This document shows positions 1-9,228 of a stretch of DNA of 9,228 nt, one piece after another. Origin of the DNA: a virus (lineage: Duplodnaviria > Heunggongvirae > Uroviricota > Caudoviricetes); IMG/VR virus record IMGVR_UViG_2526164665_000028, one strand, 5' to 3'. A model generated the notes under the pieces. It saw only the letters and a list, made by a program, of their open reading frames with translations, was not told the origin of the DNA and did not search any database. Each line of letters opens with the position of its first letter. The stretch's first letter is position 1. The translations under genes and the position numbers were made by a program.

Positions 1-241
1 AGTGGCCGTAGGCCGGAAAAACTGGATGTTCGCGGGTTCCGACAGCGGTGGTGAACATGCGGCGGTGTTGTACTCGCTGATCGGCACATGCCGTCTGAAC
101 AATGTGGAGCCAGAAAAGTGGCTGCGTTACGTCATTGAACATATCCAGGACTGGCCGGCAAACCGGGTACGCGATCTGTTGCCCTGGAAAGTTGATCTGA
201 GCTCTCAGTAAATATCAATACGGTTCTGACGAGTCGCTTAC
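1..241 (+). mobile_element. IS66-family insertion sequence, right end (partial; continues left of window)
   Basis: Transposase C-terminus in frame 2 followed by a terminal sequence ending ...GAGTCGCTTAC at 231-241, the reverse complement of the GTAAGCG motif typical of IS66-family inverted-repeat termini. Confidence 0.7.
2..211 (+). CDS. IS66-family transposase (TnpC) C-terminal fragment, 5'-truncated by window edge
   Basis: Translation ...RKNWMFAGSDSGGEHAAVLYSLIGTCRLNNVEPEKWLRYV...LLPWKV matches the conserved C-terminal region of IS66 TnpC. Stop TAA at 209-211. Confidence 0.8.
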   Translation: MAVGRKNWMFAGSDSGGEHAAVLYSLIGTCRLNNVEPEKWLRYVIEHIQDWPANRVRDLLPWKVDLSSQ

Positions 242-3012: not shown

Positions 3013-3273
3013 ATGAATAGTATTTCCGTTTCCACCCCGGCACCAGCTGCTCCGGTGCTCCCGGTTCCGGCTCAGCAGGAGCGCTTCATACGATTACCTG
3101 AAGTGATGCACCTTTGCGGGCTATCCCGTTCAACCATCTACGACCTTATCAGCCGCGATGCCTTCCCGCAGCAGATATCCCTGGGTGGAAAAAATGTGGC
3201 CTGGGTACAGTCGGAGGTCAGTGCATGGATGGCGGCGCGAATTGCTGCCCGCGAGCAAGGAGGCCATGCGTGA
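3013..3273 (+). CDS. alpA: AlpA/Vis-family phage transcriptional regulator (excisionase-like HTH)
   Basis: 86 aa; AGAGG 7 nt upstream of ATG. Product ...[49 protein letters not shown]... is the AlpA/Vis helix-turn-helix signature. Confidence 0.85.
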
Positions 3274-3308
3274 AACTTGCTTTGCAGTCTCATCTTCTTT
3301 TTTCTGGC

Positions 3309-3338
3309 TTGCGTCCTGATATCTTTTCCAGGTATAGT
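3309..3338 (+). promoter_or_regulatory. Candidate sigma70 promoter (PLE-like) for the immunity leader
   Basis: TTGCGT (3309-3314), 18-bp spacer, TATAGT (3333-3338), about 30 bp upstream of the first antisense-RNA target site. Confidence 0.3.
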
Positions 3339-3367
3339 TTTCCCGCTGCCGCAAAATCGGCTGCCGG

Positions 3368-3395
3368 GCGTAGGAACCCGAGTTACTTATTGGCG
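3368..3395 (+). promoter_or_regulatory. seqA-like bipartite target for the CI-like antisense RNA
   Basis: Half-sites GTAGGAAC (3370-3377) and CTTATTGG (3386-3393), complementary to TTCCTAC (3545-3551) and CCAATAAG (3529-3536) on the same strand. Confidence 0.5.
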
Positions 3396-3400
3396 ACACC

Positions 3401-3423
3401 AGACGCGCCGTGCGTCTTTTTTT
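3401..3423 (+). terminator. Intrinsic terminator-like hairpin in the immunity leader
   Basis: AGACGC-GCCGT-GCGTCT perfect 6-bp stem followed by TTTTTT. Confidence 0.5.
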
Positions 3424-3487
3424 ACGTCGTTGCTCAGGCACACCCATTTTTCGGGCTGCGGTGCTTATACCTTAGCCCCTTTCAGAT

Positions 3488-3572
3488 AATGGTGGTCCGG
3501 GCGGGGCAGCCTTCGGGCTGGCCGGTTTCCAATAAGGCCGGTATTCCTACCCCCGTTCGGGTCACCACCCAT
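3488..3572 (+). ncRNA. CI / C4-type antisense immunity RNA (boundaries approximate)
   Basis: GGTGGT (3491-3496) pairs with ACCACC (3564-3569) as a terminal stem; internal UUCG-closed hairpin CAGCC-TTCG-GGCTG (3507-3520); exposed region 3526-3552 carries the two blocks complementary to the upstream and downstream targets. The only ORF here (3571-3813, alternative frame) is likely spurious. Confidence 0.5.
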
Positions 3573-3574
3573 GA

Positions 3575-3618
3575 GCGTAGGAACTCCGGTGGTGGCATTT
3601 ACCGCTACTTATTGGAGG
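3575..3618 (+). promoter_or_regulatory. seqC-like second antisense target overlapping the RBS of the next ORF
   Basis: GTAGGAAC (3577-3584) and ACTTATTGG (3607-3615) repeat the seqA-like half-sites; the second abuts and overlaps the GGAGG SD (3614-3618) of the ORF starting at 3627. Confidence 0.5.
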
Positions 3619-3626
3619 TTGCCCTT

Positions 3627-3818
3627 ATGGCTACGATCCTCGCCCCGTCACATCCTCAATTTATATTTGTTTTTGCCGCCGTTCGTCGTGCAGAACGTAA
3701 ACCACGTATCAGTATGCTGCGTATCATCGCCAGCAATGAGCATCATGCACGTCTTTCACTGGTCCATGAGTATGTGCTTTGTCTTGCTGCTCGCCTGCCT
3801 GTCCGGGAGGTGATCTAA
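3627..3818 (+). CDS. Small protein, kil-like by position (first translated gene downstream of the immunity RNA)
   Basis: 63 aa; GGAGG 8 nt upstream of ATG 3627; stop TAA overlaps the next ATG (TAATG). The long overlapping ORF 3114-3818 is an artifact except for this 3' part. Confidence 0.45.
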
Positions 3819-4042
3819 TGAATCACGCCGCAATCTCTTATGACGATATTCTCCGCCTGAAGCATCTTCGTAACGTGGGAGAGTTTGTCACTGGAATGGC
3901 TGTTCTTCAGGATTGCTACGAAAAACCTGCCAGTGCTCAATGTGAACAACTGGTTTCCCTGATTTATCTGATGACAGAGCAGCTTGATGGCGTGGTACAG
4001 CGTTGCCAGGATGACCTCATGAACATGGAGGTGGTGCAATGA
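3818..4042 (+). CDS. Small hypothetical protein of the satellite left operon (epsilon/derepression-protein position)
   Basis: 74 aa from ATG 3818 with GGGAGG 7 nt upstream (the ORF call from 3779 lacks an RBS); stop overlaps the next start (ATGA at 4039-4042). Confidence 0.6.
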
Positions 4043-4362
4043 AATCACGCACTCTTTCCCTTTCACTTCGGGTAGCGTTGTATCGCCGCGCGGTAGCCTG
4101 CGCCTGGTTGAGTGCCTGCTATCAGCAAAACCGCCATCTGCAGCTCACTCTGGATGAAATTGAAACCGCTATTGCCCGTGAGCTTGAAGGATTTTATCTG
4201 CGACAGCACGGGCAAACAAAAGGCATGGAAATCGCCTGCGCCCTGCTTTCAGACCTGATGGAATACGGCCCTCTAATGTCCTGTCCCGCACTCTCCCAGC
4301 TCGGAATAGCCGTAATGGATGAGTTATGCGTCCGTCACATCAAAAAGCCGGTTTTACACTGA
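4039..4362 (+). CDS. Hypothetical protein of the satellite left operon (immediately upstream of primase)
   Basis: 107 aa; GGAGG at 4027-4031 upstream of ATG 4039; translationally coupled to the preceding ORF. Confidence 0.6.
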
Positions 4363-4376
4363 GGGAGAACTGCGTC

Positions 4377-6710
4377 ATGTCAGGAATGAAAGTCAGTCAG
4401 GCCGTGAAGGCTGCCCGCGGTCACTGGGCTCAGATTCTGCCAGCGCTGGGCGTGAATATATTGAAAAATCGCCATCAGCCTTGCCCGGTCTGTGGCGGTA
4501 AAGATCGTTTTCGCTTCGACGATCAGGAAGGACGCGGAACATGGTTCTGCAATCAGTGCGGAGCCGGGGATGGTTTAGCGCTTGTCACCAGGGCACTGAA
4601 TGTGGATATCAGTGAAGCAGCTGACAGGATACATGGACTGACACATGATCTGTCTGTAGTTAATTCCGAGGTCAGGACGTTAACCGCCGATACCGATAGC
4701 GGGAAAGATGCAGCGGCAGCACTTGCCGCGCGACTGCTGCAAGCCTCGCGTGAATCTGCCGGAAACACTTATCTTACACATAAAGGTTTCCCGGAGCATA
4801 TTTGCCATGAGCTGACTTCAGCTCATAAGGCCGGTGGTATGATGTTCCGCCCCGGTGATTTGATCGTCCCACTCTATAACGCTGACGGGGAGCTGGTGAA
4901 TATTCAGCTCATCAGTGGCAATGGTAGCAAGTGTTTTCTTAAAGGAGGTCAGGTTAAGGAGGCCTATCATCTGATAGAAGGGGGCGGGAGTTCTGTAAGA
5001 AGGATTTGGATTGCGGAAGGTTACGCCACGGCGCTTACCATTCATTATTTGACAGGAGAAGCCGTCATGGTGGCATTTTCGTCGGTCAACTTTCTTTCTC
5101 TGAGCAGCGTTGCCCATAATAAGTATCCGGGATATCAGTTAATTATTGCAGCGGACCGCGATCTGAATGGTTCAGGCCAGAACAGGGCTGAAACTGCTGC
5201 AAAAGCGAGTCAGTGTGACATTGTGCTGCCACCGGTTTTTGGTGACTGGAATGATGCGCTTACCCAATACGGAGAGGAATCCACCCGGAAGGCAATTCTT
5301 GAGGCTTTGAAGCCACATAACGCCAGTCCTTTCGACACAATGAGTGAAGCAGAATTCACAGCGATGAGTGTCAGCGAAAAAGCTCAGAGGGTTCGGGAGC
5401 ATTACAGGGATGCACTGGCGGTTGATCCGAACGGGCAGCTTTTATCCCGCTACGAGTCTGGAGCGTGGAAAGTTATTTCTCAGTCAGATTTTGCCCGAGA
5501 TGTCGCAGCCCTTTTCCAGCGCCTCGGGGCACCGTTTTCCTCAGGAAAAATTGCCTCACTGGTGGAAACATTAAAGTTAATTGTTCCGCAGCAGCAAAAT
5601 CCGTCACGTCATCTGATTGGTTTTCGTAATGGCGTTCTCGATACGCGAACAGGGCTTTTTAGTCCGCACTGTAAAGAGAACTGGCTGCGTACCCTGTGTG
5701 AAGTCGATTTCACGCCACCGGTAAAGGGGGAAACGCTTGAAACTCATGCCCCGGCATTCTGGCGTTGGCTGGACCGGGCCGCCGGACACAAGCCAGCAAA
5801 ACGCGACATTATTCTTGCAGCGTTATTTATGGTGCTGGCGAACCGCTATGACTGGCAGCTCTTTCTGGAAGTGACTGGCCCTGGTGGAAGTGGCAAAAGT
5901 ATTCTGGCTGAAATTGCGACCATGCTTGCTGGAGAGGATAACGCCACCTCTGCGACCATTGAAACGCTGGAGTCCCCGCGAGAACGTGCGGCTCTGATAG
6001 GTTTTTCTCTTATTCGCCTGCCTGATCAGGAGAAGTGGAGCGGCGACGGCGCCGGGCTTAAGGCTATAACTGGTGGCGATGCAGTATCTGTGGACCCCAA
6101 ATATCAGAATGCTTATTCAACACATATTCCGGCGGTTATCTTGGCCGTAAATAATAATCCTATGCGCTTCACTGATCGCAGTGGTGGTGTGTCCCGCAGG
6201 AGAGTTATTCTGCATTTTCCTGAGCAGATAGCACCGGAAGAACGCGATCCGCAGTTGAAAGATAAAATTGCACGAGAACTGGCTGTGATTGTTCGTCAGC
6301 TCATGCAGCGTTTCAGCGATCCGATGAGCGCCAGAACATTGCTTCAGTCGCAGCAGAATTCTGATGAGGCTCTCACCATCAAGCGTGATGCTGATCCAGC
6401 ATTTGATTTTTGTGGCTACCTTGAGGCATTACCTGACACCAACGGTATGTTTATGGGGAACGCCAATATTGTCCCACGCCAGCCACGTACATACCTTTAC
6501 CATGCCTACCTCGTATACATGGAGGCTAATGGCTATAAAAACACCCTGAGTCTTACGATGTTTGGCAAAGGGTTGCCAGTCATGCTGAAGGAGTACGGGC
6601 TACATTATGAGAAACGGCGAACTAATCAGGGAATGCAAACTAACCTCACTTTGAAAGAGGAGAGTAATGCAGACTGGCTGCCCAAGTGTGATGAGCCAAT
6701 ATTAAAATAA
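4377..6710 (+). CDS. P4 alpha-type primase-helicase (zinc-ribbon, TOPRIM primase, SF3/D5-type helicase, C-terminal origin-binding region)
   Basis: ATG 4377 with GGGAG 9 nt upstream, giving 777 aa (the ORF call from 4326 overlaps the previous gene). N-terminal CPVCGGKDRFRFDD...WFCNQCGAGDG zinc-binding motif, TOPRIM-like IAEGYATALT...IIAADRD, Walker A VTGPGGSGKS. Confidence 0.9.
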   Translation: MSGMKVSQAVKAARGHWAQILPALGVNILKNRHQPCPVCGGKDRFRFDDQEGRGTWFCNQCGAGDGLALVTRALNVDISEAADRIHGLTHDLSVVNSEVRTLTADTDSGKDAAAALAARLLQASRESAGNTYLTHKGFPEHICHELTSAHKAGGMMFRPGDLIVPLYNADGELVNIQLISGNGSKCFLKGGQVKEAYHLIEGGGSSVRRIWIAEGYATALTIHYLTGEAVMVAFSSVNFLSLSSVAHNKYPGYQLIIAADRDLNGSGQNRAETAAKASQCDIVLPPVFGDWNDALTQYGEESTRKAILEALKPHNASPFDTMSEAEFTAMSVSEKAQRVREHYRDALAVDPNGQLLSRYESGAWKVISQSDFARDVAALFQRLGAPFSSGKIASLVETLKLIVPQQQNPSRHLIGFRNGVLDTRTGLFSPHCKENWLRTLCEVDFTPPVKGETLETHAPAFWRWLDRAAGHKPAKRDIILAALFMVLANRYDWQLFLEVTGPGGSGKSILAEIATMLAGEDNATSATIETLESPRERAALIGFSLIRLPDQEKWSGDGAGLKAITGGDAVSVDPKYQNAYSTHIPAVILAVNNNPMRFTDRSGGVSRRRVILHFPEQIAPEERDPQLKDKIARELAVIVRQLMQRFSDPMSARTLLQSQQNSDEALTIKRDADPAFDFCGYLEALPDTNGMFMGNANIVPRQPRTYLYHAYLVYMEANGYKNTLSLTMFGKGLPVMLKEYGLHYEKRRTNQGMQTNLTLKEESNADWLPKCDEPILK

Positions 6711-7615: not shown

Positions 7616-8440
7616 ATGATAAAGCCATTTTCTGTGAGGTATGGTCATGTTGACGTTAGAGAGCATGTCCAGCTGAATGATCTTAATTCTGATACACGCA
7701 TGGCATTGTGGAATTGCTTATATCTTTTCCTTTGGACTAACAATCGTCAAACTGCTACAGCAACAAAATGTGCGCAGTCTGTGTGGATATATTATCTAAA
7801 TCAACCTGCGGATAATATTCCTCGTTATGAAAGTGGATACAAAAGTGATAAGACGTTGCTGACTGCTATCCGAGATTATATATATGGGGAAGCATGGTAT
7901 TTGGTATATGATTTAATTGAGTTCATCATTGAGAGAACTAATTCATATATTAATCTATCGAAGCATCTCAATTCCATCTTTAAAAAGCATGGCGTTGGTT
8001 ATACCATAATAAATGGTTGTATTACTCCTATTTCAAATGATAACGAAATTGAAAGTGTTCAGAACGCAGTTGATAATGGCACTGATTCATCGCGTAGCCA
8101 TTTCGAAAGGGCGTTACAACTAATGACGGATAGAGAGCAGCCAGACTACAGAAACTCGATTAAAGAGTCTATCTCTGCAATTGAATCTTTATGCAGGAAA
8201 ATCACGGGCAATGATAAAGGAACCTTGGGGGCTTGTCTTAAAGCTATAGAGGAAAAAGGATATATACACTCTGCAATGAAAGGCGCTTTTAGTCAGCTCT
8301 ATGGTTATACAAGTGATCAGGGTGGAATACGTCATGCGCTAACAGAAGAAGATGTAAATCCTACCTTAGCTGAAGCTAAATTTATGTTAGTCACTTGCAG
8401 TGCGTTCAGTAATTATCTGTTGTCAAAAATAAGTGATTAA
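7616..8440 (+). CDS. Hypothetical protein, tentatively AbiJ-like abortive-infection protein (HEPN/Abi_C-like C-terminal region)
   Basis: 274 aa; GGGGAAG upstream of ATG 7616; stop TAA at 8438-8440. Strongly AT-biased codons. N-terminus MIKPFSVRYGHV...ALWN and C-terminal ...YGYTSDQGGIRHALTEED... recall AbiJ-N/Abi_C proteins, but this is from memory of motif patterns only. Confidence 0.55.
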   Translation: MIKPFSVRYGHVDVREHVQLNDLNSDTRMALWNCLYLFLWTNNRQTATATKCAQSVWIYYLNQPADNIPRYESGYKSDKTLLTAIRDYIYGEAWYLVYDLIEFIIERTNSYINLSKHLNSIFKKHGVGYTIINGCITPISNDNEIESVQNAVDNGTDSSRSHFERALQLMTDREQPDYRNSIKESISAIESLCRKITGNDKGTLGACLKAIEEKGYIHSAMKGAFSQLYGYTSDQGGIRHALTEEDVNPTLAEAKFMLVTCSAFSNYLLSKISD

Positions 8441-8488: not shown

Positions 8489-8964
8489 TTATTCACCAGA
8501 CTCTAATCTTTTTTCTCTTTTCTCATCTCTCCTTTTTATTGCCAAATCGTGTTGCTCTTGCAGATACGTGCGTTCTTCGTTTCTATCGCTTGAAGTATAT
8601 ACGTCTGCTTTTACTTTTTTAGCTCCTTGTGCAATAGGTTTCCAATCCTCTCTTATACCTTTAATTTGTTCTGCAATTTGCGTCAATGGGCTTCTCGCTC
8701 CTAGATAACTTATTCCTTCAAATGTCGCCATGTCATACACATATTCATTTGTTTCTCTATCGTTTGATTTAGGTTTGCTTGCCCAGCTTATATTAATATT
8801 ATAAATTTGATCTTTGATTTGTTCATACTTACAGAGATTGCTGGTAAGTGATTGCCCATTTTTTAACACGCTTACCTTACTAAACGGAATCTCACTTTTT
8901 TCTCTATGCTCCGCATTTACTAGTGGAGGATCAAACACAACCTCAACATTATAGGCAGGTGAGG
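8489..8964 (-). pseudogene. Hypothetical protein, 5'-truncated by IS3-family insertion (remnant ORF; first ~44 codons of the 8489-9097 ORF are IS-derived)
   Basis: The ORF reads in frame across the IS terminus at 8965. Downstream of the junction the first in-frame ATG is far inside the ORF; only a GTG at 8936-8938 with a close GAGG is available. AT-rich composition like the neighbouring gene. Confidence 0.5.
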
Positions 8965-8975
8965 TGTACTGGCAA
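8948..8975 (-). promoter_or_regulatory. Hybrid outward promoter at the IS3 junction
   Basis: On the minus strand, TTGCCA (IS terminal repeat, 8970-8975), 16-bp spacer, TATAAT (flanking DNA, 8948-8953), reading into the truncated gene. Confidence 0.4.
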
Positions 8976-9228
8976 TAGCGGACACTACCATTTGTTCTTT
9001 TTTTAAGCAGCCATCTGATGATATTTTTCCCTGAAGGCTGCCGGGGAGATATTCCCCAGACGAGAGTGACGACGCTGACGATTGTAGAAAATCTCAATGT
9101 ATTCCCGTATTACTGAGATGGCTTCATCCCGGTTATTAAAACGATAGTGGCTCAGGCTCTCATTTTTCAGCGTTCCCCAGAAGCTTTCCATCGGAGCGTT
9201 GTCGTAACAGTTACCTTTACGCGACATT
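8965..9228 (-). mobile_element. IS3-family insertion sequence, terminal part (continues right of window)
   Basis: Terminus TGTACTGGCAATAGCGGACAC at 8965-8985 resembles IS3-family terminal inverted repeats (TG end, CAATAGxGGACAC block); the transposase C-terminus lies just inside it. Confidence 0.7.
9003..9228 (-). CDS. IS3-family transposase OrfB C-terminal fragment (integrase catalytic core end)
   Basis: ...GNCYDNAPMESFWGTLKNE...RDEAISVIREYIEIFYNRQRRHSRLGNISPAAFREKY is the conserved C-terminal region of IS3-family OrfB; stop TAA at 9003-9005; 5' end beyond the window. Confidence 0.8.
   Translation of the reverse strand, partial: MSRKGNCYDNAPMESFWGTLKNESLSHYRFNNRDEAISVIREYIEIFYNRQRRHSRLGNISPAAFREKYHQMAA

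Follow-up and report, generated by a model that had tools for sequence, protein, structure and literature searches.

The stretch of DNA analysed in this work (the window) comprises 9,228 nucleotides (nt) of the IMG/VR virus record IMGVR_UViG_2526164665_000028, and the part under study, positions 3627 to 4362, carries a chain of three small open reading frames (ORFs). Very probably, the region represents the left or early operon of a satellite phage of the P4 type, integrated in Escherichia coli, and lies behind an RNA gate of the C4/CI type. The order of the operon is alpA, eta/Ash (ending in kil), orfX, cnr, and alpha, where orfX is ORF2 of the chain. An earlier note on this DNA, made from the sequence alone, had taken the three ORFs as the most likely helper-manipulation or host-takeover factors of the element. 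Two of the three are predicted orthologues of characterised P4 genes, and ORF2 is the one remaining candidate. The chain is largely explained as the kil-to-cnr part of a P4-type operon, for which no new biology is needed. The features of the operon are as follows.

3013 to 3273, plus strand: alpA, AlpA-family helix-turn-helix (HTH) regulator, excisionase-like (PF05930, 4e-20); the P4 counterpart is ORF88 at the same position
3270 to 3818, plus strand: eta/Ash-like long frame of 182 amino acids (aa), with a GTG start that overlaps the alpA stop; PF10554 Phage_ASH; named 'Icd-like protein' by the annotation pipeline PGAP
3345 to 3422, plus strand: isrK-like leader RNA with an intrinsic terminator (Rfam RF01394, 72 bits, full-length)
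3485 to 3572, plus strand: C4/CI-type immunity antisense RNA (Rfam RF01695 of clan CL00128, full length, 83.4 bits where the gathering score is 45)
3577 to 3619, plus strand: target sites of the immunity RNA, a2 (3577-3583) and b2 (3608-3616), both exact complements
3627 to 3818, plus strand: ORF1, Kil/Icd-like protein of 63 aa, isoelectric point (pI) 11.2 (NF033153, 9.2e-20)
3818 to 4042, plus strand: ORF2, satellite-specific acidic protein of 74 aa with two predicted helices, pI 4.5 (phrog_10110, 8.5e-41)
4039 to 4362, plus strand: ORF3, predicted Cnr orthologue of 107 aa (P4 ORF106, DUF5375; PF17345, 2.4e-48)
4377 to 6710, plus strand: alpha-type primase-helicase of 777 aa (Zn_Ribbon_Prim, Toprim_3, D5_N, DUF5906, and Pox_D5 domains; phrog_2249, 1e-221)

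Chromosomal P4-like elements or islands of many Shiga toxin-producing E. coli strains match the window at 100% identity. The block is present in 1181 of 5426 complete E. coli genomes, and the P4 genome can be aligned across it.

Junctions and identities of the three genes

The earlier note had described three ORFs of 63, 74, and 107 aa that are linked by TAATG and ATGA overlaps, have their own Shine-Dalgarno (SD) sequences, and lie between the immunity RNA (3485-3572) and the primase gene (start at 4377). The ORF list and the sequence confirm this description. ORF1 starts with ATG at 3627 and stops with TAA at 3816-3818, and the ATG of ORF2 shares an A of this TAA to form the TAATG junction. 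ORF2 and ORF3 share ATGA at 4039-4042. An SD of the GGAGG type stands 7-8 nt before each start, namely ttGGAGGttgcccttATG for ORF1, cGGGAGGtgatctaATG for ORF2, and atGGAGGtggtgcaATG for ORF3. The coupled series begins with alpA and the operon ends with alpha, which follows ORF3 after 14 nt and has GAGGGAG before its start.

The chain was compared among 86 related loci that comprise 61 unique ORF2 DNA sequences. IMG/VR was surveyed through an alignment of Cnr from which the best 80 of 312 by similarity were taken, and this sample is hence biased; other loci were added to it, and genes were placed by tblastn. Kil and ORF2 overlap by 4 nt in 56 of the 86 loci and by 1 nt in 24, and they are separated by a 5-nt gap in one locus and by about 800 nt in the five loci where eps and orf151 have been inserted. 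ORF2 and Cnr overlap in every locus; the overlap measures 4 nt in 77 of them and 1 nt in the other nine. The gap from Cnr to alpha is 10-14 nt in 88 loci. The lengths are also conserved among relatives (63-66 aa for Kil, 73-86 aa for ORF2, and 106-107 aa for Cnr). This conservation of the chain is far beyond chance. The median pairwise ratios of nonsynonymous to synonymous substitution rates (dN/dS) are 0.165 (Kil), 0.275 (ORF2), and 0.091 (Cnr), and because of these ratios all three ORFs are predicted to be protein-coding and under purifying selection. The earlier note had named conservation among related satellites as a check of its proposal, and the chain does recur, under purifying selection, in the 86 loci.

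ORF1 matches the NCBIfam model NF033153 (host cell division inhibitor Icd-like) at 70.4 bits where the cutoff is 25. It is 71% identical over 62 aa to P4 Kil, which corresponds to residues 74-135 of the old P4 'cI ORF' (its 65-aa C-terminal part). ORF1 is a predicted Kil orthologue. The earlier note had placed the chain where P4 encodes kil and epsilon; ORF1 indeed stands exactly at the kil position, whereas epsilon is absent and ORF2 has no similarity to Eps. The statement that none of the ORFs is recognisable by sequence did not hold for ORF1 (NF033153, 9e-20; 71% to P4 Kil) and ORF3 (DUF5375, 2e-48; 70% to Cnr).

The earlier note also missed that ORF1 is not a free-standing gene. It is the 3' part of an open frame of 182 aa (3270-3818) that crosses the RNA genes and begins with a GTG within the GTGA shared with the alpA stop. 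In 67 of 71 distinct loci, no stop interrupts such an eta-like frame between the ends of alpA and kil, and the frame overlaps alpA by 4 nt or 1 nt. Phage_ASH (PF10554) matches residues 22-131 of the eta frame at 4.7e-33, and these residues are encoded by nt 3333-3662, over the isrK and C4 RNA genes. Comparative-genomics papers label PF10554 as 'Ash (also called epsilon)', and the true epsilon derepressor is PF25738 (P4 eps lies at 3063-3350 of locus L001). The 'epsilon' core marker PF10554 is therefore the Ash/eta frame over the RNA genes and not the derepressor gene.

ORF3 matches Pfam PF17345 (DUF5375) at 162.9 bits, with a gathering score of 30, and is 70% identical over 98 aa to P4 ORF106, which we take to be Cnr, the copy-number regulator of Terzano et al. 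from 1994. P4 Cnr is a negative regulator of alpha-dependent replication that lowers the copy number and stimulates the binding of alpha to ori/crr. The AlphaFold 2 (AF2) model of ORF3 is a four-helix bundle with a predicted local distance difference test (pLDDT) of 85 and a predicted template modelling score (pTM) of 0.80, and the gene lies directly upstream of the alpha primase-helicase gene. ORF3 is a predicted Cnr orthologue and, by orthology, the presumed regulator of the replication copy number of the satellite itself. A published survey (PMC8628076) reports cnr as the copy-number gene and, for 90% of P4-like elements, puts a P4 cnr family between alpha and the Ash ORF, which fits the assignment of ORF106 as cnr. 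The literature search returned no paper that mentions DUF5375.

ORF2 matches phrog_10110 over its full length (8.5e-41), a family without assigned function, and no Pfam or NCBIfam model matches it. None of the three ORFs matched the PADLOC defence models at E <= 1. ORF2 gave no BLASTP alignment with P4 Eps, the hhalign probability of the ORF2 family against the Eps alignment was 0.5%, and there was no match to PF25738, which P4 Eps itself matches at 9e-51. BLASTP also detected no similarity to P4 ORF151. Among 5.8 billion proteins, a word-indexed search recovered 18 ORF2 clusters (at 90% identity), all at least 74% identical, and a scan of 1.84 billion representatives with a hidden Markov model (HMM) found about 15 further small proteins (56-86 aa; clusters at 50% identity) with no domain fusions. 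The family members keep the motifs HLRNVG and QLDGVVxRC, and all of them are acidic (pI 4.1-6.2).

The structure prediction and fold search proposed in the earlier note gave the four-helix model of ORF3 and a two-helix model of ORF2 (AF2; helices 8-35 and 39-70, pLDDT 72), but the fold search with ORF2 returned nothing specific. Fold searches with its model recovered generic hairpins only, and Foldseek against the Protein Data Bank (PDB) recovered designed or generic hairpins at E > 5. A Rop/Rom-like copy-number hairpin was considered for ORF2 and found no support, as Rop was not among the Foldseek PDB matches. The PDB sequence search was also negative.

The ORF2 family appears to be found almost only in P4-like satellites. 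It was not found in 50,697 phage records, and it is essentially absent from true plasmids, where three of the four matches are Mb-sized records. ORF2 is always directly upstream of the DUF5375 gene and overlaps its start, and a distant metagenomic element retains the order Ash-ORF2-DUF5375. No other protein of the block is as divergent as ORF2, whose mean distance is 0.355 compared to about 0.2 for its neighbours. The rapid divergence that the earlier note ascribed to the chain is consequently true of ORF2 only, as ORF1 and ORF3 are about 70% identical to their P4 counterparts. The pairwise distances of ORF2 correlate with those of alpha residues 1-500 at r = 0.88-0.89, with Cnr at 0.80, and with Kil at 0.65, which is the weakest among the neighbours. 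A 75-aa protein of unknown function has been reported in 61% of P4-like elements and as absent from P4 (Moura de Sousa & Rocha 2021, PMC8628076). That family is similar to ORF2 in its position between the Ash ORF and alpha, in its size, and in its absence from P4, and the two are equated here by description only. The literature and databases searched assign no function to the ORF2 family, which had been noticed before and never characterised.

The probable RNA gate and the proposed relay

The isrK-like leader ends with an intrinsic terminator (3401-3417, followed by a T run) that was identified by a terminator scan, and it contains the upstream target copies a1 (3370-3376) and b1 (3386-3393). 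The model RF03163 (c4-a1b1) scores 43.8 bits, just below its gathering score of 46.7. The loop b' of the C4 RNA, UCCAAUAAG (3528-3536), is exactly complementary to b2, CUUAUUGGA (3608-3616), and also to 3386-3393. Target b2 overlaps the SD of ORF1 (GGAGG, 3615-3619). The segment a' (3544-3550) is complementary to a2 (3577-3583) and to 3370-3376.

Co-variation of loop and target was followed for the SD-proximal pair b'/b2 and the pair a'/a2 in a MAFFT alignment. The b'/b2 pair is fully paired over 9 nt in 58 of 64 distinct sequences, which represent 18 sequence types, and the a'/a2 pair is fully paired over 7 nt in all 64 (six types). Mismatched partners from different types reach full pairing in 1.9% only. 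Locus L010 exhibits a mismatched pair (6/9). Because the loop and the SD-proximal target co-vary across the 64 distinct sequences, there is strong evidence, at the level of sequence, that RNA immunity gates the chain at its entry and that the whole chain would lie behind this gate. The pairing types also imply that many hetero-immune specificity classes may exist among P4-like satellites, with at least 18 b'/b2 types and six a'/a2 types, and the co-variation provides a ready catalogue of RNA-immunity specificity types.

We propose that the chain would act as a translational relay that is gated by this RNA immunity. On the RNA that starts at a constitutive promoter near 3345, kil would be the first translatable gene. 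The C4/CI RNA derived from the leader would pair with a2 and b2, and b2 would cover the kil SD. With kil untranslated, ribosomes would not enter the overlapping orfX and cnr, and the naked RNA would be terminated prematurely, as at the Rho-dependent site inside kil of P4, so that immunity would keep cnr and alpha silent. Once immunity gives way, ribosomes would run through and the whole chain and alpha would be expressed. Transcription from upstream of alpA would have the same outcome, where alpA and eta would be translated across the RNA region and the chain and alpha would be on.

The roles of kil, eta, CI, and seqA in P4 have been reported to follow this logic, where untranslated kil permits premature termination and the translation of eta from an upstream late promoter prevents termination (PMC10111431). 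The idea of a relay is also supported by the isrK-orf45-anrP locus, in which AUGA coupling was shown experimentally (PMC4825925). For the window, Rho-dependent termination, the toxicity or division block exerted by Kil, and the activity of Cnr would be expected by analogy with P4, P1, and N15. The termination logic of untranslated kil and of eta in P4 reportedly goes back to Forti et al. from 1999.

The closest known system is the left operon of P4 (orf88/alpA, eta/kil with CI RNA, eps, orf151, cnr, and alpha), which exhibits the same gene order, strand, and nested frame. P4 also shares the alpha primase domains and has the C4/CI-type RNA upstream with flanking targets, one of them on the kil SD. 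The window differs from P4 in lacking eps and orf151, in having an intact 74-aa orfX where P4 has a 21-codon relic, and in its immunity loop and targets, which represent one of many specificity types.

Similar arrangements are found in immI of P1/P7 (c4, icd, and ant) and immA of N15/phiKO2 (CA RNA, icd, antA, and antB), where a processed RNA of the C4 family masks the ribosome-binding site region of an icd-like first cistron, as predicted here. The a1/b1 and a2/b2 arrangement is shared by P1 c4, P4 CI (seqA and seqC), and the window. The downstream genes of the P1 and N15 operons are coupled by 4-nt overlaps as in the window, but those of the window are orfX, cnr, and the primase gene and not a Bro/Ant-type antirepressor. 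The Icd-like ORFs of the N15, phiKO2, and PY54 group share 41-50% identity with ORF1. The N15-like telomere phages have an ORF of 76 aa with 4-nt overlaps between icd and a large antirepressor-type gene (Klebsiella phage KpLi5, L090 2921-3151; N15 gp31, L091 2168-2398). Its resemblance to ORF2 is one of position only, as hhalign detected no similarity between the two (probability 0.4%).

In the Gifsy-1 locus of Salmonella (isrK-orf45-anrP), a small ORF comes after an isrK-family leader, and its stop and the start of the next gene share AUGA; the window also has its isrK-family match upstream of the C4 RNA. However, orf45 of Gifsy-1 is translationally activated by the small RNA and is coupled to an antirepressor gene, whereas the RNA of the window would repress kil, and other genes are coupled there.

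Distribution of eps and orf151 and the relic of ORF2 in P4

The element in the window has neither eps nor orf151. The same holds for 77 of the 80 IMG/VR loci, which have Kil, ORF2, Cnr, and alpha without Eps or ORF151, and ORF2 is intact in 77/77. Eps, ORF151, and an ORF2 of 86 aa occur together in two IMG/VR loci, in three NCBI loci, and in E. coli 99-3165; ORF2 stays attached to cnr where eps and orf151 have been inserted upstream. P4 and a near-identical contig have Eps and ORF151 without ORF2. Among the complete E. coli genomes, 1005 of 5426 carry eps and orf151 DNA and 549 carry ORF2 of the window type. The view that eps is rare, which came from the biased IMG/VR sample, was dropped on account of these 1005 genomes.

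By aligning the gap between orf151 and cnr of P4 with elements that bear both eps and ORF2, we have identified in P4 a relic of a gene of the ORF2 family. The relic is a 21-codon ORF, MPYQLMQPARNAVICHREKSK, at 7366-7301 (complement) of P4 NC_001609, which equals 3872-3937 of locus L001. It retains the upstream hairpin, the SD, and the ATGCCT start, and its stop shares ATGA with the start of cnr. An in-frame deletion has removed about 195 nt from the gene body. Approximately 987 E. coli genomes match only the first ~77 nt of the gene, which is the relic, and in 16 genomes eps is accompanied by the complete 86-aa gene. With respect to the ORF2-family gene, P4 is thus a deletion derivative. Because the relic keeps its overlap with the start of cnr, the retained junction suggests that translation into cnr may matter.

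In eps-bearing elements, orf151 is closely followed by a conserved hairpin, TGTGCGTAT..GCGCAGGGATACGCAC, which precedes the SD of the gene of the ORF2 family or of its relic (L001 ~3826-3853; L006, L067). It could be a terminator or a processing site.

P4 thus lacks a gene that most of its relatives keep, and decades of P4 genetics are silent on the role of orfX because P4 retains only the relic. True epsilon is absent from the element in the window and from 77 of the 80 sampled IMG/VR relatives, and ORF2 is the obvious candidate for the handling of a repressed helper.

Candidate roles of ORF2 and the surrounding element

We take ORF2 to be a protein-binding modulator. Our leading guess, a tentative one, is that it fills the 'antirepressor slot' after an icd-like gene, as found in immunity operons with a C4 RNA, and acts on a DNA-binding protein of the helper or the host. 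In P4, in N15-like phages, and in Gifsy-1, the gene coupled after the icd-like cistron is an antirepressor, and the gene coupled downstream of the icd-like cistron of P1 is likewise an antirepressor. Every sampled element without eps keeps ORF2, and the sole lineage that lost ORF2 has eps. ORF2 is also acidic and fast-evolving. A fuller and still more tentative version is that ORF2 is the ancestral effector of this slot, a small acidic hairpin that would inactivate a DNA-binding protein of the helper phage or the host, with epsilon as a later acquisition of the P4 lineage that was followed by the loss of orfX. If this is true, the textbook P4 model would be atypical of how most satellites in the family deal with their helper.

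A close second, and about equally supported, is the possibility that ORF2 modulates replication control. ORF2 would here be an acidic partner that tunes the interaction of Cnr with alpha or the binding of alpha to the origin, and it would belong to the cnr-alpha module and not to immunity or hijacking. ORF2 overlaps cnr in 86/86 loci, remains with it when eps and orf151 are inserted upstream, and is found in the same Ash-ORF2-DUF5375 order in the distant metagenomic element; its distances track alpha 1-500 and Cnr better than Kil. However, every gene of the operon overlaps its neighbour, so adjacency discriminates weakly, and shared ancestry dominates the distance correlations. In P4, replication and the use of Cnr do not require ORF2. 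Elements with ORF2 encode a Cnr that is about 90% identical to that of P4, so the loss of ORF2 needed no obvious compensation.

The proposal of the earlier note, by which each of the three ORFs would be a fast-diverging factor of helper manipulation or host takeover and ORF2 or ORF3 would take the place of epsilon, is improbable. ORF1 is the only one of the three that would fit host takeover, as a plausible host-directed toxin of the Icd family whose toxicity is expected from that of Kil. The antirepressors in the post-icd slot of P4 (eps), N15-like phages, and Gifsy-1, together with the rate of evolution of ORF2, the fastest in the block, leave ORF2 as a candidate. The proposal nevertheless fails for ORF3, which as a Cnr orthologue with a dN/dS of 0.09 would regulate the replication of the satellite itself, and it is weakened by the lack of divergence of ORF1 and ORF3 (about 70% identity to P4) and of similarity between ORF2 and Eps.

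It is similarly doubtful that ORF2 is mainly a translated spacer or leader cistron that brings ribosomes to cnr, with a product of little function of its own. The P4 relic, with the SD, ATG, and ATGA junction retained after the in-frame loss of ~195 nt, and its occurrence in ~987 E. coli genomes would be expected in that case. A pure leader role is unlikely because the ORF2 protein itself is constrained: its dN/dS of 0.275, its invariant motifs, and its conserved length indicate selection on the protein, the two-helix prediction is confident across 30-97% identity, and the gene is intact in all 77 eps-less loci. The least probable role, and a very unlikely one, is that of an acidic antidote that neutralises Kil in the manner of a toxin-antitoxin pair, which the opposite charges (pI 11.2 for Kil and 4.5 for ORF2) and the translational coupling might suggest, because kil often occurs without ORF2 (in P4 and in about 1,000 E. 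coli elements), ORF2 lies ~800 nt from kil in eps-bearing elements, and Kil is the neighbour with the weakest co-inheritance (r = 0.65).

Several points weigh against reading the region as a working P4-type operon in which ORF2 fills the antirepressor slot. ORF2 and eps co-occur in some elements, which argues against a simple equivalence with Eps, and P4 functions without ORF2. The fold and profile searches with ORF2 gave nothing specific. Kil toxicity, Cnr function, and Rho termination are carried over from P4 at ~70% identity. This copy of the satellite may also be immobile or decaying, because an integrase was not seen in the window or in the 19-kb annotated context and there are insertion sequence (IS) elements on both flanks. 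The element is bracketed by the C-terminus of an IS66-family transposase (2-211, plus strand) and a fragment of an IS3-family transposase (9003-9227, minus strand).

The context annotated by PGAP consists of ogr/Delta, Psu, a gene at the Sid position, an AlpA-type HTH gene, Icd-like, hypothetical, and DUF5375 genes, and the primase gene, followed by an AbiJ-NTD4 gene. The intergenic region between sid and alpA, which is the position of the P4 ori, contains T(A/G)TTCAC repeats (2256-2468) that include three TCACCA(A/G)TAT units with a 10-nt spacing (2435-2464). The exact type-1 iteron of P4, TGTTCACC, is not repeated in the window, which has the T(A/G)TTCAC repeats instead.

Downstream of alpha, an ORF of 202 aa (8489-9097, minus strand), without a PADLOC match, is adjacent to the gene of the AbiJ-NTD4 protein (274 aa; 7616-8440, plus strand), which matches the PADLOC candidate defence family PDC-S32 at 5.6e-104. 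These two genes just past alpha are probably the defence cargo of the satellite.

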